This document shows positions 23,473-54,995 of a stretch of 64,000 bases of DNA, one piece after another; position 1 is the first letter of the stretch, and every line of letters begins with the position of its first letter. Made by a program: the position numbers and the translations under genes. The notes below the pieces were generated by a model, which was not told where the DNA came from, made no database searches, and was given only the letters and a program-made list of their open reading frames with translations. This DNA is from Candidatus Bathyarchaeia archaeon (GTDB lineage: Archaea; Thermoproteota; Bathyarchaeia; Bathyarchaeales; Bathycorpusculaceae): NCBI GenBank assembly GCA_049969855.1, contig JBMFOB010000001.1, positions 32,001-96,000 of the forward strand. Direction: 5' to 3'.

Positions 23473-23547
23473 GCTCCGGTAGTATAGCCCGGTCAAGTAT
23501 TCCGGCCTTTCGAGCCGGAGACGCGGGTCCGAATCCCGCCCGGAGCA
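23473..23547 (+). tRNA. tRNA-Glu(TTC)
   Basis: GCTCCGG...CCGGC CT TTC GA GCCGG...GCGGG TCCGAAT CCCGC CCGGAGC A cloverleaf; T-loop reads TCC rather than TTC. Confidence 0.93.
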
Positions 23548-23691
23548 CTCCAAATCTGAGCGTATTTTAGGCGTATTTTGGTTAAAAAAGCTCAATTCGA
23601 GCAGTTTCTAAAAGAGGCTAAAATTAGAACACGAATTTACCGGCAAAAAATAATGCTACTAATAATCTACTATGAACTTTCATAACATAGT

Positions 23692-23967
23692 CTAGCATCG
23701 ATGTGTAGAATTTCTTAATAACTCTTTTGCTTCGCGATAATGGTATAAAAGCAATTTACCTTTCTCTGTTATTTCGTAAACCACACGGTTTTCTTGCTCA
23801 AGTTCCCTTATTAGATCCAACTTCATTAACAAGGTCATGTATTTTTGGAGTTGGCTAAAACTCACATTGGCTCTATACATTATATGCGTTTTTGTAATAG
23901 TCTTTCCTGTTTCAATAGCCTCTAAAATTTGAGCACATATTTCTAAGTGTGATCTTCGCATCGACAT
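23692..23967 (-). CDS. Winged HTH protein (HTH_45-like)
   Basis: RRSHLEI..ILE...KTHIMYRANVS...YEITEKG. Confidence 0.88.
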   Translation of the reverse strand: MSMRRSHLEICAQILEAIETGKTITKTHIMYRANVSFSQLQKYMTLLMKLDLIRELEQENRVVYEITEKGKLLLYHYREAKELLRNSTHRC

Positions 23968-24117
23968 TGTTGATTCCTTTTTCTTATAGAAGATAATTCA
24001 TTAACAATATTCTGTAATAGTGTTCCATAATGTTTATTATCAGAAAGCTTCTTTTAAACTTTTGCAGATAGTTCCTGGTCGGGATTATCTGTCAAGGTAC
24101 CATATTAAATATGTTGT

Positions 24118-25164
24118 TTATTTTAACAAGTTCTGAGTTTTTACTCTTAATTCTTTAACTGACAATATTTCTATATCAAACATATCTTTGAAGGAAGTTG
24201 CTCTTTTCTTAGACTCTTCTCCGGCGTATACGTATACATCGCCATCCCTTATCTTCCTTGAGTCCAGAGTTCTATCAAATCCTTGAAACGCCCCGCCCTT
24301 GGAACAAGCATATGCGGCAGCACTTACGATTGGTTCTCCACTAAGATCAGAAATACGTATTCCTTCAATGTCTATAAAAATTATGGGATGTGCAAGAAAG
24401 TTATCTGGAGGAATTTCTTGTTTGCTGTACCATCTAATTTTTGATAAAACTCCTTGATCAAGAAATCTTGTTTCAACAGGAAAATCGTAGTTTCCCCACA
24501 CCTCTTCTATGTTTTCGGGTGTTAGCCACAATTTTCTATCCCAAAGCTTTTTCTCCGTTAAATAAGTCAGCATATCCGCCACAGAAATAAACTCGTTGCA
24601 TTCATCACCCTTTGGATAGATTTTTGGAGTAGTGTGCTCTGTTAAATCGCGCCAAGCTGTAGTTTGTTTACTTGAAAAGCCATCTATTAAGTATATGTTA
24701 GTTTCTGATCGATGCCTGCCACTATACGACCATGCGGTTGTGTAAGAAAACATAGGAGTTAGAGAACGAAGAAATTTCATTGTAGGAATTTCTTCTATGG
24801 GACAACCATACCCTCCAACGGAGACTGATTTTATATCATTAGGTGGAAGGACCACATATGAACAAAAAATACTCTCAATAACATCTTGAAGTTCAGTCAC
24901 TATTTCATCACAAAATCTTATGGCTTTTGCATGACCTATTTCCTTCCATAGGGTGCTATGAGAATAAACAAGCCGTTTTGTTGGGACATTAAATTTCTTT
25001 ATAAGATTTTTCCGCGAATTATGATAATTTGATTTAAAATCTTCTTCTTTTCCGTTCTTAATAATCACGCCAATACCAAGAGGAGTGAAGAAAACTGTTT
25101 CTTTTTGTTCTTCAACTTTCTTCCAACGAGAAAATTCGCCGACATCAAAGGCTGCAATTGTCAT
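24118..25164 (-). CDS. Hypothetical protein, possibly RNase H-fold (DUF3800-like)
   Basis: N-terminal AAFDVGE, internal LIDG and ISVADML resemble the D-E..D..AD catalytic layout (inference). Confidence 0.6.
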   Translation of the reverse strand: MTIAAFDVGEFSRWKKVEEQKETVFFTPLGIGVIIKNGKEEDFKSNYHNSRKNLIKKFNVPTKRLVYSHSTLWKEIGHAKAIRFCDEIVTELQDVIESIFCSYVVLPPNDIKSVSVGGYGCPIEEIPTMKFLRSLTPMFSYTTAWSYSGRHRSETNIYLIDGFSSKQTTAWRDLTEHTTPKIYPKGDECNEFISVADMLTYLTEKKLWDRKLWLTPENIEEVWGNYDFPVETRFLDQGVLSKIRWYSKQEIPPDNFLAHPIIFIDIEGIRISDLSGEPIVSAAAYACSKGGAFQGFDRTLDSRKIRDGDVYVYAGEESKKRATSFKDMFDIEILSVKELRVKTQNLLK

Positions 25165-25231
25165 AATTTACATTGAGCTTTCCTTCAAAATAAATTTTTC
25201 ATTATTGAAATGAATGCCCAGTAACAGGGAT

Positions 25232-25320
25232 GTTTGAAAACCCAACTGCACTGAGCATATTTTGTGGTAAACTTGAGCGCAAATTCTGCTTCGGACATTC
25301 CAAATTAGAGCTTATTTTAG
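25232..25320 (+). repeat. att-like site 1 (degenerate)
   Basis: ATATTTTGTGGTAA, 13 nt, then TTCTGCTTCGGACATTCCAAAT (14/22 vs tRNA-Glu 3' end plus flank); the downstream flank resembles 23548-23625. Confidence 0.7.
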
Positions 25321-25424
25321 CCAACAAAGCTCGATTTTGGCAGTTTGTATGCTAGAAGCCCAAATAACAAGACTACAGTAAGCTTTAAGATTTCTATTGT
25401 TGGATTGAATATGGAGGTATTTGA

Positions 25425-26351
25425 ATGGCTGTAAGTAAGCTAAATCGAGTCCCAGTTCGTCAGGTTTGGAAAAATGAAGAAAAAGACTTTACGCCATGGC
25501 TTGCGAAGAATATTGAAATTCTAGGAGAAACTCTTGGAATGCCACTTTCCGTCGTGGAGAAGGAAACTGATGTAGGTGAATCTTTTGAGGCAGATATTCT
25601 TGCGGAAGGTAAGGATGGCATACCAGTGGTAATTGAAAATCAATTTGGGAAGACAGACCATGATCACTTAGGAAAACTAATTACATACTCCACAAACTTG
25701 GAGGCTAAAATAGCTATATGGATATGCGAAAATCCTCAACCAGAGCATGTAGCAGCAATTGATTGGTTAAACAAGAACACTTCAGGCGATATATCCTTTT
25801 ACTTAATCAAACTCGAAGCTTTCCAAATTAATGGTTCTCCGGTGGCACCACATTTTTCTATAATCTCTGAACCAAGCAAAGTAATAAGAGAAGCCGGCGA
25901 AATGAAAGAAGAGCTTGCAGAAAGACATATCAAAAGACTTGAGTTTTGGAGACAACTTTTAGAAAAAAGCAGTCTGGACATCTTCTCAAACGTGTCGCCC
26001 AGCAAGGATCACTGGATAGCAGCAGGCGCTGGTAAAAGCGGGCTCTCATACAATTATGTTATATTAATGAATTCTGCGAGGGTCGAGTTCTACATAAGTA
26101 CACCGGATGCTGCAAAGAATAAGAAAATATTTGACGAGCTGTATAAAAGAAGACAAGAGATTGAAAAAGACTTTGGTGAAGAGTTGGAATGGCAACGTCT
26201 CGATGACAAAACAGCGTCTCGTGTAGCAAAAACAGTTTCGCAAAAAGGATTGATGAATGTGGAGGAGTGGTCAGATATTCAAAGCAAAATGATTGACGCT
26301 ATGCGTAGACTTGAAAAAGCAATAAGCAAGCACATAAAAACAATAGGTTAG
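25425..26351 (+). CDS. DUF4268 protein with N-terminal PD-(D/E)xK-like nuclease domain
   Basis: VWKNEEKDFTPWL, ADIL...VIENQ, TDHDHLGKLITY; C-terminal EFW...ELEWQRL; GGAGG RBS. Confidence 0.85.
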   Translation: MAVSKLNRVPVRQVWKNEEKDFTPWLAKNIEILGETLGMPLSVVEKETDVGESFEADILAEGKDGIPVVIENQFGKTDHDHLGKLITYSTNLEAKIAIWICENPQPEHVAAIDWLNKNTSGDISFYLIKLEAFQINGSPVAPHFSIISEPSKVIREAGEMKEELAERHIKRLEFWRQLLEKSSLDIFSNVSPSKDHWIAAGAGKSGLSYNYVILMNSARVEFYISTPDAAKNKKIFDELYKRRQEIEKDFGEELEWQRLDDKTASRVAKTVSQKGLMNVEEWSDIQSKMIDAMRRLEKAISKHIKTIG

Positions 26352-26398
26352 GAACAGAAAAATAGAAAACCCATGAATAATAATATTAAACAATTAGA

Positions 26399-26486
26399 GT
26401 TTCAAACCCCGCAATGCTCAGAGATATTTTACTGGTAATTTCGTGCGCCGTTCCCGCCCGGAGCACTCCAAATTTAGGTTTATTTT
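26399..26486 (+). repeat. att-like site 2 (intact)
   Basis: TTTTACTGGTAA, 13 nt, then TCCCGCCCGGAGCACTCCAAAT (26452-26473), 22/22 identical to 23534-23555. Confidence 0.92.
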
Positions 26487-26531
26487 AAGCAGGTTTAGTG
26501 GCGAAATCCTCATTTGATTTAGAATTGGATA

Positions 26532-26783
26532 TTAGTAGACACGTTTGCGATGGCCCACAACTAACAAAAATACTTCATTTTTCTTAACTTGATAAAGAAC
26601 TCGGTAATCCCCTATTCTTAAAGAGTAAACGCCTTTCCATTCGCCGCGTAAAGGCTTTCCTACGTAAGGGTTAGTCTTTAATATTTTGATCTCTTGAAGT
26701 ATCCGTACTTGAATTTTTCTGTCTAAAGCTTCAATGTTCTTTAAGAAACGCGGCGTAAACCGAACTTCAAATTTCGCCTTCAA
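26532..26783 (-). CDS. RelE/ParE family toxin
   Basis: NPYVGKPLRG..YSLRIGDYRVLY..VGHRKRVY. Confidence 0.92.
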   Translation of the reverse strand: MKAKFEVRFTPRFLKNIEALDRKIQVRILQEIKILKTNPYVGKPLRGEWKGVYSLRIGDYRVLYQVKKNEVFLLVVGHRKRVY

Positions 26784-26976
26784 GGTTTAACTCTCTTACA
26801 AGCTCATCCAATGGTTTAGCCTTGCCCTCTTCAACCTCTCTTAAGGCAATCTTCAAATCTTTGACAAGTTTCTTGTCTTGCAGGACTTCAAGAGTTTCTA
26901 ATAGCTCATCCATTAAACTGGCAGCTTTTGTTAGCAGTTCTTTCTCTTCCGCTGTTAAAAGAGGCATACCTCTCAC
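26767..26976 (-). CDS. Cognate antitoxin (RelB/Phd C-terminal-like)
   Basis: Acidic ELLETLEVLQD..L..ALREVEEG; overlaps the toxin start. Confidence 0.8.
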   Translation of the reverse strand: MRGMPLLTAEEKELLTKAASLMDELLETLEVLQDKKLVKDLKIALREVEEGKAKPLDELVRELNLEGEI

Positions 26977-27045
26977 AAACCTTCAGAATATAAAATCTCC
27001 GCAGACATTTTAACTCTTACTCTTAAAATCGGATTAGCAAATGTG

Positions 27046-27086
27046 TTTACTGGTAATTTTGTGCGTCGTTTCCGTCCTGGGCACTC
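27046..27086 (+). repeat. att-like site 3
   Basis: TTTACTGGTAA, 13 nt, then TTCCGTCCTGGGCACTC (13/17 vs tRNA-Glu 3' end plus flank); collinear with site 2. Confidence 0.85.
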
Positions 27087-49168: not shown

Positions 49169-51847
49169 TTAGTTTTTCTTATTTAATTGCCCCTTAGCGC
49201 TAATCTTTCTAGGTGGCATTAGAACTTGTTCTAGGCGGTAGCCGTACCTTTTGTAAAACCAACTTTTAACGATTTCAGCTAAAGCTAGGTAGGCGCTGAG
49301 TATAGCCGCTAATGCAATGAAGAAGGTTTGCGGAGCCTTTACGAATTCAAAAATTGTTCCTAGTGGCGTATATGGCAATATTAATGCGAAGATTATTATC
49401 GCTATACTGCTTAGAACTAAGAGTCTGCTTGGTTTGCTTTTCCAGAAGGGTGACTTTTTGGTTCTAATAACAAAAATTACCAACGTTTGGGAAGCTAAGG
49501 ATTCAAGGAACCAAGCAGTTTGGAACAACGGTTCAGTGGCGTTAAAAATGAAAAGCATTATAAAGAATGTTAAGAAATCGAAAAGGGAGCTTACAGGTCC
49601 CAAGCATACCATAAACAGTCTGATGAAATGCATGTCCCACCTCTTCGGCTTCTCAATATATTCTTGGTCAACTTCATCCATAGGTATTGTTGACTGAGAC
49701 AAGTCGTAGAGGAGGTTGTTGAGCAATACCTGTGTCGGACGCATAGGCAGAAACGGCAAGAATAGGGATGCTCCAGCCATGCTGAACATATTTCCAAAGT
49801 TTGAACTCACACCCATCATAATATACTTCATAGTGTTGCCGAAGGTTTTTCTACCCTCCAAAACTCCGTCATGAAGCACTGTCAAATCAGTTCGCAAGAG
49901 TATAATGTCAGCTGACTCCTTTGCAACATCAACCGCATTATCCACCGATATGCCGACATCTGCGCTTCTCATCGGTGGTGCATCGTTTATTCCATCTCCT
50001 AAAAACCCTACTACATGGCCGTTATTCTTTAAAGCATTTATTATGCGGTCTTTTTGGGCTGGAGTGACTCTGCAGAAGACATTAGCCTCTTCAACAACCC
50101 TTGCAAGGGCATCATCGCCTGCTTGAGCGATTTCATTCCCAGTGACTATCCCTTTAATCTCAAAGCCTAAATATTCGCAAACTTTTCGGGTTACCAGTTC
50201 ATTGTCGCCCGTGAGGATTTTCAGCTCGACGCCTTCGTTTTTCAAGAGTTGCAGAGAATCCTTAGCTGTTTCTTTTGGAGGGTCCAAGAAGGCGATAAAG
50301 CCTAAAAACACCATGTCAAATTCGTCGTTGACAGAATAAACAGCCTTTTCTTCTCTTAGACGCTTGTAAGCAACACTTAAAACTCTAAAGCCTTCAGCGC
50401 TTAACTCAATGTATTTCTGCTCAATTTTTCTGCGCACTTCCTCTGTTATGTCGGCAATAACATTCTCAACTTCGTAATAAGAGCAGATTTTAGCGATTTC
50501 TTCTGGGGCGCCTTTAGTAATCATAAATCGCTGATTTTGATATTCAATTACTATGGAGAGGCGTTTTCGTACGAAATCAAATGGCACCTCATCAATTTTT
50601 ATGTATTCCTTCACGTCTATGTCTCTAAACTTTAGCACTGCCTCGTCAAGGGGACTCCTCAATCCTGTTTGAAAATGACTGTTTAGATACGAGTAGAGTA
50701 TCACTTTCTCGCTTTCATCTCCATTGATATCCACATGAAGGACAAGCTTTATTCTGTTCTCGGTCAATGTTCCAGTTTTATCTGTGCATAAGACATCCAT
50801 GCTGCCAAAATTCTGTATAGAGACTAAACGCTTTACAATGACACCTTTCTTAGACATTGCAATGGCTCCTTTAGAAAGATTAACCGATATTATCATCGGC
50901 AAAAGTTCAGGTGTTAAGCCTACAGCCAAAGCCACTGCAAAAAGAAGCGAGTCAAGCACACTGCGCATGTAAAGGGCATTTATGAAAAAAACAAACAGAA
51001 CAAGCAAAAATGTAACTTGCATTATCATATAACCAAAACTTCTAATTCCCCTCTGAAATTCTGTTTCTGGCTCCCTTGATACAAGCCTCTTCGCAATTTT
51101 CCCAAACTCTGTAAGGCTTCCAGTTTTCACCACAACGGCAGTTGCGGTTCCGCTTACAACAGATGTCCCCATGAAAAGATAGTTATTCCACTCCGTGATT
51201 GCAGACACGTATGATTTCAATGGAACAGCTGTCTTTTCAACAGGAAACGATTCGCCAGTCAACACAGACTGGTTCACGAACAAATCCTTTGCACTAATTA
51301 CCCTAGCATCCGCTGGCACTATGTCGCCTGCTGAAAGGTATATTATGTCGCCCGGAACTATCTCGGAAAGCTTAACCTCACGTTTAACGCCGTCCCTCAC
51401 CGTAGTTGCTGTGGTTGCCACCCTCTGTTTCAACATTTCAGCAGCACTTTCAGCCCTAAACTCTTGATAAAAATCTAAAATAACACTTAACATTACTATT
51501 GCGAATATTATAATAGTGTTGATGACCTCTCCAAAAAAGCCTGAAATCAGCCCAGCAACTAAAAGGATAATTATTAAAGGACTCTTAAAATGAGAAAGAA
51601 AATCAACGACAACTATCCTTTTCTTTTTCTTAACAATTTCATTGTAACCATATACTCTTATGCGTTCCTCAGCTTCTTCGGAAGAGAGCCCTAACAAAGA
51701 AGTGTTTAAACGAGTAAAAAGCTCTTGAACTGGTAGAGTTAGAAGCTCTTCTGTACTCGGCAGAACCCGGCTTACAATCTCGTTCCCATCTAGTTTCTCT
51801 TGGTTTTGTAGCTTCATCGTTTTCACCGCCCATTTCTCTTGAACCAT
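49169..51847 (-). CDS. mgtA: Mg2+-translocating P-type ATPase (P3B)
   Basis: TGES, AVGLTPELLP, DKTGTLT, TKGA, DPPK, TGDN, GDGIND, SSNFGNMFS, NNLLYD. Confidence 0.93.
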   Translation of the reverse strand: MVQEKWAVKTMKLQNQEKLDGNEIVSRVLPSTEELLTLPVQELFTRLNTSLLGLSSEEAEERIRVYGYNEIVKKKKRIVVVDFLSHFKSPLIIILLVAGLISGFFGEVINTIIIFAIVMLSVILDFYQEFRAESAAEMLKQRVATTATTVRDGVKREVKLSEIVPGDIIYLSAGDIVPADARVISAKDLFVNQSVLTGESFPVEKTAVPLKSYVSAITEWNNYLFMGTSVVSGTATAVVVKTGSLTEFGKIAKRLVSREPETEFQRGIRSFGYMIMQVTFLLVLFVFFINALYMRSVLDSLLFAVALAVGLTPELLPMIISVNLSKGAIAMSKKGVIVKRLVSIQNFGSMDVLCTDKTGTLTENRIKLVLHVDINGDESEKVILYSYLNSHFQTGLRSPLDEAVLKFRDIDVKEYIKIDEVPFDFVRKRLSIVIEYQNQRFMITKGAPEEIAKICSYYEVENVIADITEEVRRKIEQKYIELSAEGFRVLSVAYKRLREEKAVYSVNDEFDMVFLGFIAFLDPPKETAKDSLQLLKNEGVELKILTGDNELVTRKVCEYLGFEIKGIVTGNEIAQAGDDALARVVEEANVFCRVTPAQKDRIINALKNNGHVVGFLGDGINDAPPMRSADVGISVDNAVDVAKESADIILLRTDLTVLHDGVLEGRKTFGNTMKYIMMGVSSNFGNMFSMAGASLFLPFLPMRPTQVLLNNLLYDLSQSTIPMDEVDQEYIEKPKRWDMHFIRLFMVCLGPVSSLFDFLTFFIMLFIFNATEPLFQTAWFLESLASQTLVIFVIRTKKSPFWKSKPSRLLVLSSIAIIIFALILPYTPLGTIFEFVKAPQTFFIALAAILSAYLALAEIVKSWFYKRYGYRLEQVLMPPRKISAKGQLNKKN

Positions 51848-51993
51848 CCCTTATAGATGAACCAGTATACCTACACCTCTCTGCGTTCTTAAAATTGTTT
51901 CTATAAATCATTTAGCGGTAAATCTTGCATATCATTTTTAATTGAAAAACCGGAAAGAGAAACTGAAAATTTAACATCAACAGTAAACACAAG

Positions 51994-52032
51994 CGCCGGA
52001 GAAGGGATTTCAACACCAATTTATCAGTAAAG
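51994..52032 (-). repeat. att-like site at the tRNA-Ser island boundary
   Basis: 51994-52009 matches the tRNA-Ser 3' end (54015-54030) at 15/16; the minus strand reads TTTTACTGATAA, 13 nt, TCCCTTCTCCGGCG. Confidence 0.8.
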
Positions 52033-52395
52033 AGTTCGACACCCTCCCGAGCTACCACAAAAACATTGCTTTTAACGTTATTCGCTGAATTGGCTTGCGA
52101 GAAATGGTTTATCAATTGTTTAAGCGCCGTTCCTAGATATTATATGACATTTCTTTTGTTTTTCATTTGGCAAAAATTCAGTCTTTGAACCCTAGGGAAA
52201 GGGGATAATTGCTGAAGCTAAGATTCCCTTGCTGCAATCATGGAGAAGTAACCGTTAGCAAAATGTTTAACTCTTAAAAAGGCGAAGTTTAATGGTTAAG
52301 CAACTGACTGTGTTGGAGGCGCGTCACCATTTATGGATAAAGAAATCCCAGAAAGAGAATATAGCGCGAAAGGGAAAGTATCTAGGTTTGAGTAG

Positions 52396-52983
52396 GTGTT
52401 AAAAGTGGATGATAAAATCGGTCTCGGTAGCATGGTTGGAATAGGAATGATGTGCGTGATGCTTGGATTTCTAGGTTGGCTACATGCTAACTTCTTGTTC
52501 GAAAGATTAAGTTACGTGTTTGGATTTGTGGGAATAGACACCAGCCATTATATATCCGCCGACCTTGGTGAAATAATGCGGATTTATGTGGGCTTTATTA
52601 TAACTGGGTGTGTGTTTCTATTCTTTGGTTCTTTAGGAATAAAAAAGAAATTGAAGAACAACACAATCAATCTAGGAATTACACTGGTTCTTGGTCCGAC
52701 CCTTGCGTTTCTAGGCGTAATCAATTGGGTTGATTTGAGCTTCTATATGCTGGGTTTAATGTTCGTGCTTATGAGCGTTTCATTCACAAAATACAGGGCA
52801 TATGCCAAATACTATGTTCCCGCGATCCTGATTTGCGGAGTCATAATTACAATGTTGGGGTACCATCTTTTACACGCCATACACTGCGGGCTTGTCTATG
52901 CGACAGGTATAAGCGTGCTTGCTAGTGGAGTGATTAACCTTATCTTAGTCGAGAAAACTAGAGAGAAAGGTCTTTTCAGCTAA
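52396..52983 (+). CDS. Multi-pass membrane protein
   Basis: About 6 hydrophobic segments. Confidence 0.7.
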   Translation: MLKVDDKIGLGSMVGIGMMCVMLGFLGWLHANFLFERLSYVFGFVGIDTSHYISADLGEIMRIYVGFIITGCVFLFFGSLGIKKKLKNNTINLGITLVLGPTLAFLGVINWVDLSFYMLGLMFVLMSVSFTKYRAYAKYYVPAILICGVIITMLGYHLLHAIHCGLVYATGISVLASGVINLILVEKTREKGLFS

Positions 52984-53047
52984 AAATGGGAAAGAATGCA
53001 ACCACAACCGTAATAAGCTGACCAGTAGAACTCAATAAGAGGGTTGC

Positions 53048-53320
53048 ATGAAATATACAAAACACGCAAAAGCCAGAGCAGCTGAAAGGGGTATAACTGA
53101 GGACATGATTTTGGAAGCGATATTGCAACCCTCCCAGACATATTATGACTTAAGCACTGGAACAACAATCGTCTTCAAGAAGCTTAATGGGAAGTATCTT
53201 TTAGTAGCATACTCTAAAGAGAATAAGGAAATCAAAATTGTAACAACGTTTATAACATCAAACGCCCAAGAAATAATTAGCAGAAAACTGGAAAGCAGAA
53301 CATGGGTGAGGATTAAGTGA
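53048..53320 (+). CDS. DUF4258 putative toxin (RelE/BrnT-like fold)
   Basis: YTKHAKARAAERGI, L.VAY...IKIVT. Confidence 0.85.
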   Translation: MKYTKHAKARAAERGITEDMILEAILQPSQTYYDLSTGTTIVFKKLNGKYLLVAYSKENKEIKIVTTFITSNAQEIISRKLESRTWVRIK

Positions 53321-53538
53321 AAGTGGAATATGACAGAGAATCCGACATATTATACATAAAGTTTAAAGAGTCAGAAATAGCAGATACTAAAATATTAGGT
53401 GAAGACGCCTACATAGACTTAGACAAAGACGGAAACCTAGTTGGCATAGAAATATGGAAAGCCTCCCAAAACGCCATACTCCCAATATCAAAAGACATAG
53501 CCGAAAAACTAAAACTAATTTTAGAAAACCCCGCCTAA
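53317..53538 (+). CDS. DUF2283 putative antitoxin
   Basis: YDRESDILYI, DLDKDGNLVGIEI; 4-nt overlap with the toxin. Confidence 0.88.
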   Translation: MKVEYDRESDILYIKFKESEIADTKILGEDAYIDLDKDGNLVGIEIWKASQNAILPISKDIAEKLKLILENPA

Positions 53539-53610
53539 AGCAAAATAAAAGCCTTCCAACAAAATCTAAATTAATTCTCAACCGCTAAACGCTAACTTCT
53601 AGATTTTTGA

Positions 53611-53636
53611 TTTCTGTTAGCGTCTCCTAACAGAAA
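53611..53636. terminator. Perfect 10-bp inverted repeat (terminator or operator)
   Basis: TTTCTGTTAG-cgtctc-CTAACAGAAA downstream of the TA pair. Confidence 0.4.
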
Positions 53637-54014
53637 ATGCTTAAATAAAAGTGGAGTGAGTTGTGCAAAAAGGTTTGTTATTACATATTGAGGTTGACTT
53701 TGTCTACCCTTAAGGATTTATCGATAATAGTGATATTTTCTTGGAAGCCTAGTTCAAGTCCACATAGGCTCTTGTTTCTTAAACATAGCGATGTCTGGAG
53801 TGGCGGAATCTTTCTGTTAGTCGCTGTTAAGGGAATTTAAAACCATGAGAAAGTCTTCTGTAAGGGTTAAATGCTATTGGGGAAGTTGTTGTAAGAACTT
53901 ACAGCAAGCCACAACCAGATTCAAGTTTACTATTTCAATAAATCTCATTATACGCTCTAAAAAAAGGCTATTTATCAAAACAAAGCGCAAAATTAACCCA
54001 AAACGTTAAAATGA

Positions 54015-54134
54015 CGCCGGGGAAGGGATTCGAACCCTTGCGAGCCCGAAGGCCCACTGGCTTACCTGTTCTCATCTAGCCCTTCTTTCAATTTGATCTC
54101 GAGGCCAGCGCGTTAACCGCTCCGCCACCCCGGC
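54015..54134 (-). tRNA. tRNA-Ser(CGA) with approx. 35-nt intron in the anticodon loop
   Basis: GCCGGGG...CTGGC CT CGA G [intron about 54063-54097] A GCCAG, long variable arm GGGCCTTCGGGCTC, GGTTCGAATCC. Confidence 0.92.
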
Positions 54135-54158: not shown

Positions 54159-54171
54159 TAAAAAGGGTTTT
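54159..54171 (-). promoter_or_regulatory. Probable BRE/TATA promoter of tRNA-Ser
   Basis: AAAACCCTTTTTA about 25 nt upstream; same element as for tRNA-Arg. Confidence 0.6.
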
Positions 54172-54995
54172 CATCGGGTTAATAGTGAAGGGAAAAGCCA
54201 CTGTTTCTTCTTTTCGTGTTTTTTCTTGTCCCATTCATAAAGGATTTTTGTTGCTTCGTTTGCAATTTTTATGGCGTTCTCTTCGCCTGCTCCGGGCTTA
54301 AATTTGTTTGTGCATCTGTTAGCGTAAACAGCACATATGGAGCCTGCTCTTAATCCGTAAAGATTTGCTAGAGTGAACAGTGTGGCTGTTTCCATTTCAA
54401 AGTTTAAAACTTTCGCCTTCTGCAAAGTTGAAAGCAAATCTTCCATGTGCTGTGGATAATTCTTTATTGTTGGGCGCCTTTGTCCGGCGTAAAAATCTGC
54501 TGTTGTCGCAGTCACGCCTACATGATAATTGCTTATGCCAAGGCTTTCAGCAGCCTCAATCAAAGCCAACAAAACTTCATAGTTCGCCACAGCAGGATAC
54601 TCGGGCATGATGTAACAGTTACTCGTGTAATCCAAGCGTACAGCAGCCGAAGAAATAATCACGTCACCACAGTTTATGTCTTCCTGTATAGCGCCAGTAC
54701 TACCCACACGAATAAAAGTATGCACACCAATACGCGAAGCCTCATTGACAACAATAGCCATACAAGCGGGACCAATACCACTTGAAAGAGCAGAAAGCGG
54801 AACGCCTTTATATTTGCCTGTGAAACTTCGAAACTCACGGTGACAAGAAACTTCCTTGGCAGAATCCCAAAAAGAGGCAATTTTTGGAACTCGTTCCGGG
54901 TCGCCGGGCACAAGCAAATACTCGGCTAAGTCGCCTCTTTCACATGCAATATGATATTGCTTGCTAGGAAACATTGAGTGCATCATATTCACCAT
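54171..54995 (-). CDS. udp: Uridine phosphorylase
   Basis: QYHI, PGDPERV, HREF, GIG, IRVGSTG, FYAGQ.R, NFEME. Confidence 0.9.
   Translation of the reverse strand: MVNMMHSMFPSKQYHIACERGDLAEYLLVPGDPERVPKIASFWDSAKEVSCHREFRSFTGKYKGVPLSALSSGIGPACMAIVVNEASRIGVHTFIRVGSTGAIQEDINCGDVIISSAAVRLDYTSNCYIMPEYPAVANYEVLLALIEAAESLGISNYHVGVTATTADFYAGQRRPTIKNYPQHMEDLLSTLQKAKVLNFEMETATLFTLANLYGLRAGSICAVYANRCTNKFKPGAGEENAIKIANEATKILYEWDKKKHEKKKQWLFPSLLTR

Follow-up and report, generated by a model that had tools for sequence, protein, structure and literature searches.

How did a 2.0 kb segment of DNA come to be enclosed between an intact tRNA-Ser gene and a second copy of that gene's own 3' end? The question is raised by a 64,000-nucleotide stretch of contig JBMFOB010000001.1 (positions 32,001 to 96,000, forward strand) of a Candidatus Bathyarchaeia archaeon (assembly GCA_049969855.1); we refer to this whole stretch as the window, and coordinates given without a contig name are window positions. 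The source genome, G000, comprises 1.28 Mb and is 93% complete, with contamination given as 3.8%. We conclude that 52008–54014 is probably a cassette lacking an integrase, inserted site-specifically at the 3' end of tRNA-Ser(CGA) and possibly mobilised in trans. Elements ending in the same sequence arm apparently constitute a widespread and seemingly undescribed family of tRNA-inserting mobile elements, the integrase for the window cassette being encoded elsewhere.

On the minus strand, the motif TTTACTGATAA (52031–52021) is followed by the 13-nt spacer ATTGGTGTTGAAA (52020–52008) and then by TCCCTTCTCCGGCG (52007–51994), which differs only at position 52000 from the 3' end of the tRNA, TCCCTTCCCCGGCG (54028–54015). 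When the two preceding A residues are included the repeat is 16 nt long, and 15 of the 16 positions are identical (54015–54030 versus 51994–52009). The original prediction, made from the sequence of the window, had described this arrangement of motif, spacer and tRNA fragment on the minus strand, and it is present as claimed with one mismatch, except that the fourth T placed at the start of the motif is a C (52032). The segment 52031–51994 is the right-hand attachment site (attR) of the insert. We designate the right-end arm, the repeated tRNA core and the left-end arm as X, O and Y respectively, and the components of the site are as follows.

51994 to 52009, minus strand: core copy O in attR, AATCCCTTCTCCGGCG, with one mismatch to the tRNA at 52000.
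52008 to 52031, minus strand: right-end (X) arm, consisting of motif TTTACTGATAA and the 13-nt spacer ATTGGTGTTGAAA; homology with a same-genus relative (G002) and with contigs of other runs ends exactly at 52031.
53905 to 54014, minus strand: left-end (Y) arm of about 110 nt, from a MAFFT alignment with cassette left ends from 14 other places.
54015 to 54030, minus strand: core block O in attL, AATCCCTTCCCCGGCG, reaching from the end of the T-loop to the discriminator base.
54015 to 54134, minus strand: tRNA-Ser(CGA) with an intron of about 35 nt, the integration target and attB side of attL (Rfam RF00005, 50.3 bits; ARAGORN with introns).

Default ARAGORN misses the tRNA gene, and with introns allowed it labels 54015–54134 as tRNA-Thr(cgt) with a 35-nt intron. 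We assign it to Ser(CGA) because it has a long variable arm, because a CGA anticodon is equally possible, and because the syntenic gene in a relative (G026) is called Ser(cga). The Y arm, whose extent in the window was judged by eye, starts with TCATTTTAAC; within it a sequence of the GCNTATTTTGG type occurs twice in direct orientation, and the arm motif reappears near +95 in inverted, degenerate form. Position 52000, an A on the plus strand, is a G in contigs of runs X1, X3 and X5, giving a perfect repeat in those populations.

The bare 11-nt motif occurs at chance level: the 1.28-Mb genome contains it four times exactly, and 30 shuffles average 3.2. All four copies continue as WTTNGTG, with TCCC or TTCC at +13. 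The motif followed by 13 nt and TYCC has three matches in the window and none in 100 dinucleotide shuffles, and the motif followed by a near match to a tRNA end of the source genome (12 nt with at most two mismatches) was observed twice, with none in each of 30 shuffles. The combination of motif, spacer and tRNA end, for which such a comparison had been proposed, is thus above chance, and the same motif and spacing recur as claimed at the tRNA-Glu sites of the window, with matches at 26428 and 27046. The fourth exact copy of the arm in the source genome (C23:4675–4712) precedes a tRNA-Leu-like fragment, which has no match among the assembled tRNAs of that genome, and a Y arm, in that order, forming an X-O-Y junction; a similar copy is present in G002 (contig C22).

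The insert is 2.0 kb in length (52008–54014) and contains three genes and about 475 nt of non-coding DNA beside the tRNA.

52396 to 52983, plus strand: 195-aa hydrophobic open reading frame (ORF), a putative membrane protein of no known family, with about 5–6 hydrophobic segments by hydropathy.
53048 to 53320, plus strand: DUF4258 protein of 90 aa, a putative toxin of the RelE/ParE superfamily (Barnase–EndoU–colicin E5–RelE, BECR, fold); Pfam PF14076, E 4.2e-9.
53317 to 53538, plus strand: DUF2283 protein of 73 aa, a putative antitoxin, whose start overlaps the DUF4258 gene by 4 nt; Pfam PF10049, E 2.2e-18.
53613 to 53634, no strand assigned: perfect 8-bp hairpin TCTGTTAG-N6-CTAACAGA in the non-coding part of the cassette, from a sequence search.

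This agrees with the earlier description of the cargo as a toxin-antitoxin (TA) pair and a membrane protein. Both domain matches exceed their curated cut-offs (37.0 bits against 25 for DUF4258, and 66.6 against 23 for DUF2283), and Pfam gives the 195-aa ORF only a sub-threshold match to DUF3149. Presumably DUF4258 and DUF2283 belong together as the two halves of a TA module, and judged by its domains the pair is a putative type II system. DUF4258 is listed among the BECR-fold, RelE/ParE-like toxins of type II systems, with the remark that little is known of the family (PMC11980606). Homologues of the module lie near other tRNAs in G003 (89% identity) and G001 (81%). In three other runs labelled as hot spring, the summed contig depth over 53000–53550 is many times that of the rest of the cassette, and the module there sits in several contexts, with loose ends behind 53550; the DUF4258/DUF2283 module itself appears to travel widely. 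The hairpin has a relative with one mismatch at G000:C9:53011–53032, about 1.4 kb from a tRNA-Ser(GCT) (the reversed control gave 0), and short matches in G004. No integrase was recognised in the insert, either as a PF00589 match among its ORFs or as a remnant in tblastn searches with the family integrases and accessory protein described below (best E 0.11). The claim that there is no integrase thus stands for the cargo; the family's integrase is nonetheless found in relatives and, truncated, on contig C33 of the source genome.

The arm is not confined to the window. An 18-nt version, searched with at most one mismatch, is present in 13 of 41 related genomes, giving 26 matches compared with 2 for the reversed control. 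A 27-nt pattern identified 106 stretches in a public collection with one genome per species, and among the 80 of these that were listed, 55 are from Bathyarchaeota or Bathyarchaeia, 12 from Thermoplasmat* lineages, 7 from other archaea and 6 from bacteria, the last being about what chance or mis-binning would give; the pattern has no match among IMG/VR viral contigs. The sequence T[CT][CT][CT] stands at +13 in 125 of 133 arm sites, and at nearly all sites a tRNA-like 3' end follows the arm at the same 13-nt spacing. These fragments correspond to Ser(CGA), Ser(GGA), Glu, Leu, Ile and other tRNAs, both in relatives and in a second phylum, although some ARAGORN labels in the fetched loci are unreliable owing to introns. 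In fetched loci of sufficient length, an identical 3' end is found 0.7–4.9 kb upstream, in a complete tRNA gene or in another copy of the core. The proposal of one element family with several tRNA targets is borne out by this shared arm and spacing in two phyla, and by left ends that are homologous across targets. No published description of the arm and attachment (att) architecture, or of the integrase and accessory module, was found in the literature searched, supplementary att tables (e.g. PMC6563490) lying outside its scope, and the papers listed for the motif string are all unrelated.

Beside the tRNA, complete arm-bearing elements encode a Xer-like tyrosine integrase (about 324 aa) and a small, DNA-binding-like protein (about 175 aa). 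In G026, the syntenic tRNA-Ser comes after a PhoU-like gene and udp. Beyond it stand CCAA and the 12-bp palindrome TTTACCAGTAAA, then an ORF of 177 aa and the gene for a tyrosine recombinase of 324 aa, and the arm, spacer and core are found 35 kb further on; the region holds just these two core copies, with the integrase beside attL. A 5.45-kb element in G129 has the order tRNA, palindrome, accessory gene, int and X-O, ending in the arm and a 19-nt repeat, and its other genes are insertion sequence (IS) transposases and unknowns. In G004, of the same genus as the source genome, contig C21 presents the attL side: udp, a tRNA-Ser 95% identical to that of the window, CCAA, palindrome, accessory gene and int. 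The order of tRNA, palindrome, accessory gene and integrase is also present in a Thermoplasmatota genome. A search of 301 Bathyarchaeia genomes gave integrase matches in 18, and 16 of the 20 loci returned were examined after short partial matches (L165–L167 and L170) were dropped. Eleven of the 16 have a tRNA 3' end, 4 nt and the palindrome about 600 nt upstream of int; of the five without this pattern, two are cut by contig ends, one has a run of N upstream, one is a 28%-identity match and one is a fragment. At L152 (G116:C1:1221658–1225578), a 60%-identical integrase homologue has a run of N upstream, and the readable part contains neither tRNA nor palindrome.

The family integrase has a PF00589 domain and SAM-like N-terminal domains. 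It scores 180.9 bits against the NCBIfam XerA model, below the cut-off of 220, and its closest solved structures in the PDB are XerD and XerA. In the source genome, the last 105 residues are encoded at the start of contig C33 (C33:2–316), with 71% identity over 104 aa. Downstream of this truncated gene, C33:1787–6258 encodes a winged helix-turn-helix protein, a second tyrosine recombinase (330 aa) and a 966-aa ORF, and by eye (no family library scan) the end of an IS110-type transposase; the region looks like part of a larger island. The accessory protein has only sub-threshold Pfam and NCBIfam matches, to Arc, RelB and DUF6364. A structure predicted from 12 homologues (mean predicted local distance difference test score, pLDDT, 75.9; predicted template modelling score, pTM, 0.39) has two N-terminal helices, a 45-residue helix and a C-terminal unit of three helices and two strands. 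Foldseek returned no match to this model at E ≤ 0.001, the weak top rows being mostly winged-helix DNA-binding domains, and we tentatively read the modelled protein as a ribbon-helix-helix (RHH)-like domain, a coiled coil and a winged helix.

A second type of recombinase was considered as the integrase of the arm family and rejected. When six integrase seeds were compared by phmmer with the ORFs of all fetched loci, matches were seen only in G026, L065, L101 and L119. The zinc-ribbon integrases of L065, L101 and the source-genome contigs C15 and C36 are a separate family with no link to the arm. The C15 gene (G000 C15:5068–6490, L002) encodes a 419-aa tyrosine recombinase with an N-terminal zinc ribbon. 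An intron-bearing tRNA-Leu is encoded on the other strand, with its 3' end 40 nt from the end of the recombinase gene; this tRNA is not called by ARAGORN, and no palindrome is present. The L065 homologue of this recombinase is truncated where it meets a tRNA-Leu fragment of 38 nt, in the manner of the split integrases of Sulfolobus spindle-shaped virus (SSV)-type elements. The C15 and L065 recombinases thus belong to a second integrase family that uses tRNA-Leu.

The split integrases of SSV-type (class I) elements suggest another account of the window site, in which the arm is the end of an integrase gene that was divided upon integration. An open frame does run through the arm, the two Glu copies differ mostly at third positions, the C23 copy has a CGT to AAA change (Arg to Lys), and the truncated zinc-ribbon integrase of L065 does abut a tRNA fragment. 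However, the frames through the arm are only 39–75 codons long, no long ORF of the genome carries the peptide in an arm context, and the ORF at 51912–52115 matches no Pfam family. In the complete elements the integrase gene lies next to attL, at the opposite end, and points away from the tRNA; the insert has no integrase similarity by tblastn; and the L065 integrase is of a different family, at a junction without the arm. We regard a coding origin of the arm as extremely unlikely.

The small inserts have homologous left ends: sequences from several genomes and tRNA targets can be aligned over about 110 nt (MAFFT), and after the core these comprise (CCA)TTTTACCAGTT in the Ser-type sites, two direct repeats of the GCNTATTTTGG type and an inverted arm motif near +95. 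In the integrase-bearing elements, unlike the cassettes, the palindrome is followed by a TATA-like stretch and the accessory gene, and no convincing match to the cassette-type Y box was found downstream of int in these elements. A core copy is present within 3 kb at 11 of the 47 sites for which 3 kb or more of sequence upstream was available (source genome excluded). Small inserts carry 1–5 genes in either orientation, and their cargo includes (from the best 25 of 64 Pfam families) PIN, UPF0175, RHH, DUF3368, methyltransferases, radical SAM, ATP-binding cassette (ABC) transporter and PAS kinase. Twenty-three such inserts were found, of which two of 4 nt and one of 58 nt have no ORF and one duplicate was dropped; integrase hidden Markov models have no match, even at E 10, to the 44 ORFs of the remaining 19. 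The lack of an integrase or accessory-gene remnant in the window insert, together with the distinct left ends, argues against the window cassette being a recent deletion derivative.

Repeated insertion at a single tRNA is suggested by a three-cassette array elsewhere in the window.

23473 to 23548, plus strand: tRNA-Glu(TTC), target of the array at 23549–27045, with HTH_45, DUF4268 and ParE cargo.
26428 to 26465, plus strand: internal X-O site consisting of the motif, 13 nt and TCCCGCCCGGAGCA, with a Y arm behind it.
27046 to 27083, plus strand: terminal, decayed X-O site (TTCCGTCCTGGGCA).

The first cassette contains an HTH_45 winged-helix gene and a 348-aa unknown, the second DUF4268, and the third ParE and a 69-aa partner, and X-O-Y junctions separate them (window 23473–27086). 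A strongly decayed junction is visible by eye at about 25240–25330. The orthologue of the 27046 site in G004 has an intact core. In L083, the ParE module is the only one between tRNA-Glu and the arm, and it is 87.7% identical to that of the window, whereas the adjacent AcnX gene is 73.0% identical. The source-genome contig C34 (5111 nt) is a 72.5%-identical counterpart of C1:50619–55558 that ends 64 nt past a second tRNA-Glu(TTC). It is probably from a second, related organism in the bin, and it breaks right at the integration hot spot.

To see how the tRNA-Ser site varies among relatives, the chromosomal flanks need to be considered.

49169 to 51847, minus strand: P-type cation ATPase (MgtA-like), the chromosomal flank beyond attR; Pfam E1-E2_ATPase and related domains.
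54171 to 54995, minus strand: uridine/purine nucleoside phosphorylase, the flank upstream of the tRNA; Pfam PNP_UDP_1, syntenic in G026, G001, G002 and G004.

G002 is 93.5% identical from mgtA through the arm and 96% identical over the tRNA, and its insert consists of a small basic ORF and a radical-SAM gene bounded by a perfect 22-nt repeat. G001 and G004 (contig C1) share cargo of the G002 type beside the tRNA and then continue differently. Contigs of three other runs match the mgtA flank as far as 52031 and part from it there; beside the tRNA, divergence sets in at 54014/54015, and some loose contig ends past the tRNA read as Y arms. The empty site between mgtA and tRNA-Ser that had been suggested as a check is not seen in relatives, but the variability expected of the site is present, as different cargo between the same flanks.

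One interpretation of such variability is that the arm and tRNA fragment beside mgtA are a fixed docking scar, inherited vertically, with cargo exchanged by homologous recombination, deletion and unrelated insertions. Consistent with this, the arm and core of G000 and G002 differ at 3 of 38 positions, similar to the divergence of the mgtA flank, and homology with relatives always passes through the arm and stops at its outer edge. Arms are, however, equally similar between unrelated genomes, so that arm similarity cannot discriminate between the two views. The internal X-O-Y junctions of the arrays are what successive site-specific integrations predict, and complete integrase-bearing elements end in the same arm. 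We therefore consider a static scar highly improbable, and site-specific insertion of a cassette as the better description of the locus.

The point of exchange can be narrowed by comparing paired sites, in which attL and attR are identical from the T-loop (AATCCC...) onwards as far as the end of the tRNA, and often through CCA. Because the terminal flanks beyond attR mostly lack the palindrome, the exchange must fall within this identity block of 14–19 nt. The order of the element's own site (attP), X-O-Y, can be read from the internal array junctions. In Ser-type sites and G026, two 12-bp palindromes TTTACYRGTAAA are located 30 nt apart, with an 11-nt stretch on the inner side of each; these two stretches, TTGGTGCTGAA and CCCGGCGCCAA, form an imperfect inverted repeat whose halves differ by transitions only. 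This geometry would leave a centre of about 8 nt, in the T-loop and the 3' strand of the T-stem, between inverted arms, a layout resembling dif. The suggestion that exchange takes place at the T-loop AATCCC fits both the start of attL/attR identity and the attP dyad; the crossover point itself we infer.

Across 76 distinct acceptor types, the complementarity of the spacer to its own tRNA fragment averages 5.17 of 9 positions compared with 4.68 (standard deviation 0.115) for permuted pairs, a value reached in 0 of 2000 permutations; the decay of many fragments keeps this effect small. The G026 attR and an internal L073 site fold better than shuffles (z = -5.1 and -2.0, respectively), and the window's three sites do not (z = +0.84 for attR, -0.90 and +0.30). 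A hairpin at the window's own sites was thus considered and dropped, dyad symmetry being confined to X-O-Y or G026-type attR sites.

Several unusual loci bear on the palindrome. At L081 and L103 a tRNA gene, 4 nt, the arm and a second copy of the tRNA's own 3' end adjoin without cargo, forming a near-perfect palindrome of about 26 bp; L053 is similar with the second copy decayed, and at L104, and apparently also L044 and L140, the arm and a Glu-type fragment stand immediately behind a tRNA-Leu. Cargo-less sites such as L081 and L103 may be deletions between two palindromes. The 4-nt "inserts" of L081 and L103, the tRNA-plus-palindrome junctions of L026 and L027, and the tRNA-Leu, arm and Glu-type fragment of L104 had suggested a crossover inside the 12-bp palindrome, at a dif-like site composed of the tRNA end and an inverted copy. 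We rejected this as a general account, since the terminal flanks beyond attR are usually without palindrome, and the attL and X palindromes of G026 have opposite central dinucleotides.

Small and often TA-bearing cassettes in arrays, parted by a repeated site with dyad symmetry, also call integrons to mind; on this view the repeats would be attC-like hairpins, and an integron-type integrase would act on them as folded single strands. The repeats are, however, tRNA 3' fragments in direct orientation, and the family integrase scores 50 bits against the integron-integrase model TIGR02249, for which the cut-off is 265. Neither array has an integrase or attI beside it, the cassettes hold 1–5 genes in either orientation, and the window's own sites do not fold. 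An integron-like origin is therefore very hard to credit.

A plausible mechanism for site-specific insertion is that attP has the order X-O-Y and that the integrase exchanges strands at the centre of that site, where about 8 nt are identical to the T-loop and 3' strand of the T-stem; the palindromes may be bound by the accessory protein (about 175 aa). The cassette would be unable to move alone and would be moved in trans by a co-resident autonomous element, or be trapped when none is present. In the source genome, the contig-truncated integrase copy on C33 is a candidate source of activity in trans. Repeated integration at one tRNA would build arrays, as at tRNA-Glu. Provided that the rest of this reading holds, active movement of the cassettes in trans seems to us about equally likely to be true or false.

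Several observations weigh against a mobile cassette. At the window itself, the Y arm is among the more degenerate copies in the alignment with 14 other places, the core copy carries a mismatch, and attR has no dyad partner and does not fold; the dyad statistic over all sites, while significant, is small. The source genome has only a C-terminal fragment of the integrase at the start of a contig, and no homologue of the accessory protein was found in it by tblastn. Only three of the 13 arm-bearing related genomes (G000, G004 and G026) have an integrase at E ≤ 1e-15, and the other ten show none, from which it follows that most arm sites persist without an integrase, although these genomes are related and incomplete and the count is a description rather than a test. 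No recognisable arm follows the radical-SAM neighbour in G001 and G004, and part of the variability may be ordinary island decay. No excision product or empty site was seen, and contigs of runs X1, X3, X5 and X10 never join across the insert; these runs were available as contigs only, with parts of the cargo uncovered in X3, X5 and X10, and the lack of a join is no evidence either way.

Many of these points are accommodated by supposing that the insert is a dead relic, a once autonomous element that lost its integrase module and is immobile, with the differences among relatives arising from independent old integrations and deletions. The scarcity of the cognate integrase, the mismatched core, the degenerate left arm and the lack of a joint across the insert in the other-run contigs are all as expected of a relic, as are the decayed copies at 27046 and (by eye) 25240–25330 and the C23:4675 site that matches no assembled tRNA. 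Against this, the insert retains no trace of integrase or accessory gene by tblastn, and the left ends of the cassettes are a conserved type of their own, which recurs across genomes and tRNA targets and differs from the left ends of integrase-bearing elements. Many inserts of 0.7–3 kb with unrelated cargo retain both ends. The L083 ParE cassette is much closer to its window counterpart than is the adjacent core gene, and populations that are 92–94% identical over the mgtA flank differ in cargo between identical boundaries. A relic is a serious alternative that we nonetheless think unlikely, and insertion as an integrase-less cassette is the reading that we retain.

The cassette fits among the islands formed by tyrosine recombinases that target tRNA genes, in that a tRNA repeat bounds it, conserved flanks enclose a variable insert, and its att architecture is shared with integrase-bearing elements; only an integrase of its own is absent. 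By their defining features, integrons, SSV-type proviruses and dif-type elements do not include it, and the fragments int(N) and int(C) abutting att sites, which mark the SSV type, are not found in the insert by Pfam, ORF or tblastn analysis. She et al. reportedly spoke of "gene capture", and Williams (2002) is said to have distinguished classes of sublocation within tRNA genes. Closer parallels are the cis-mobilizable elements (CIMEs) and the accretion-mobilization of streptococcal integrative and conjugative elements, in which inserts have att sites but no recombination module. The window cassette is CIME-like in this sense, having both att sites and no recombination module, and in both systems autonomous elements capable of acting on those att sites share the site with such inserts or adjoin them in tandem. 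Here, by contrast, the host is archaeal, there is no conjugation context, the integrase is of another lineage, many tRNAs are targeted, and the cassettes have a conserved left end of about 110 nt of their own; their mobilisation is putative.

Tycheposons of Prochlorococcus are tyrosine-recombinase elements at tRNA genes, flanked by full and partial tRNAs; newcomers push older elements deeper, partial tRNAs and degenerate remnants dot the islands, and the cargo is adaptive or defensive (bioRxiv 10.1101/2020.12.28.424599). The arm family shares insertion at tRNAs by a tyrosine recombinase, the full and partial tRNA flanks, the stacking and the remnants. Tycheposons differ in being bacterial and in carrying an integrase and often replication genes, and the accessible part of that preprint describes no conserved palindromic arm at a fixed distance from a core. 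Archaeal elements integrated by tyrosine recombinases into the 3' part of tRNA genes, including cryptic elements and arrays at one site, are described in Thaumarchaeota and elsewhere (PMC6563490, on integrated mobile genetic elements; PMC8371274), and the arm family agrees with these accounts in all three respects. It differs from class I (SSV-type) elements in that its integrase is not split by integration, and neither Bathyarchaeota nor Thermoplasmat* is mentioned in the review of archaeal tyrosine recombinases (PMC8371274).

The dif site comprises two 11-nt inverted repeats and a 6-nt spacer (PMC8371274). The arm family is similar to XerA/dif in its Xer-like integrase and in a reconstructed core with inverted arms of about 11 nt around a short centre, but it targets the 3' end of tRNAs, its integrase falls below the XerA equivalog cut-off, and it has additional flanking palindromes, an accessory gene and a centre that we infer to be about 8 nt. 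The family integrase genes also differ from XerA in sitting in islands beside tRNA genes. With integron cassettes the inserts have in common that they are small, often encode TA systems and are stacked at one site, although the defining integron features are lacking.

Bathyarchaeia are abundant and uncultured, and little is known of gene exchange among them. The arm family appears to explain small variable islets behind many tRNA genes of Bathyarchaeia and Thermoplasmatota, and its signature of motif, 13 nt and tRNA 3' end finds such islets and their boundaries in metagenome-assembled genomes even where no integrase is present. If the cassettes are only relics, this is a useful annotation rule and the biology is ordinary. 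A bolder view, which we put forward tentatively and with considerable doubt, is that of a modular, retargetable att system in which the Xer-like integrase, probably with the accessory protein, would read a constant 12-bp palindrome standing at a set distance to each side of an exchangeable tRNA core, with an inner arm that co-varies with the acceptor strand, and would serve many tRNAs in at least two archaeal phyla and move in trans a large set of integrase-less cassettes that have conserved ends of their own. A design with a constant palindrome and an exchangeable core would, if true, show how an integrase family can switch targets while its main recognition site is unchanged, and would constitute a compact thermophilic recombination system with a reprogrammable target. 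Were the modular system as a whole to hold, it would be a functional, tRNA-anchored analogue of the integron for the accessory and defence genes of archaea.

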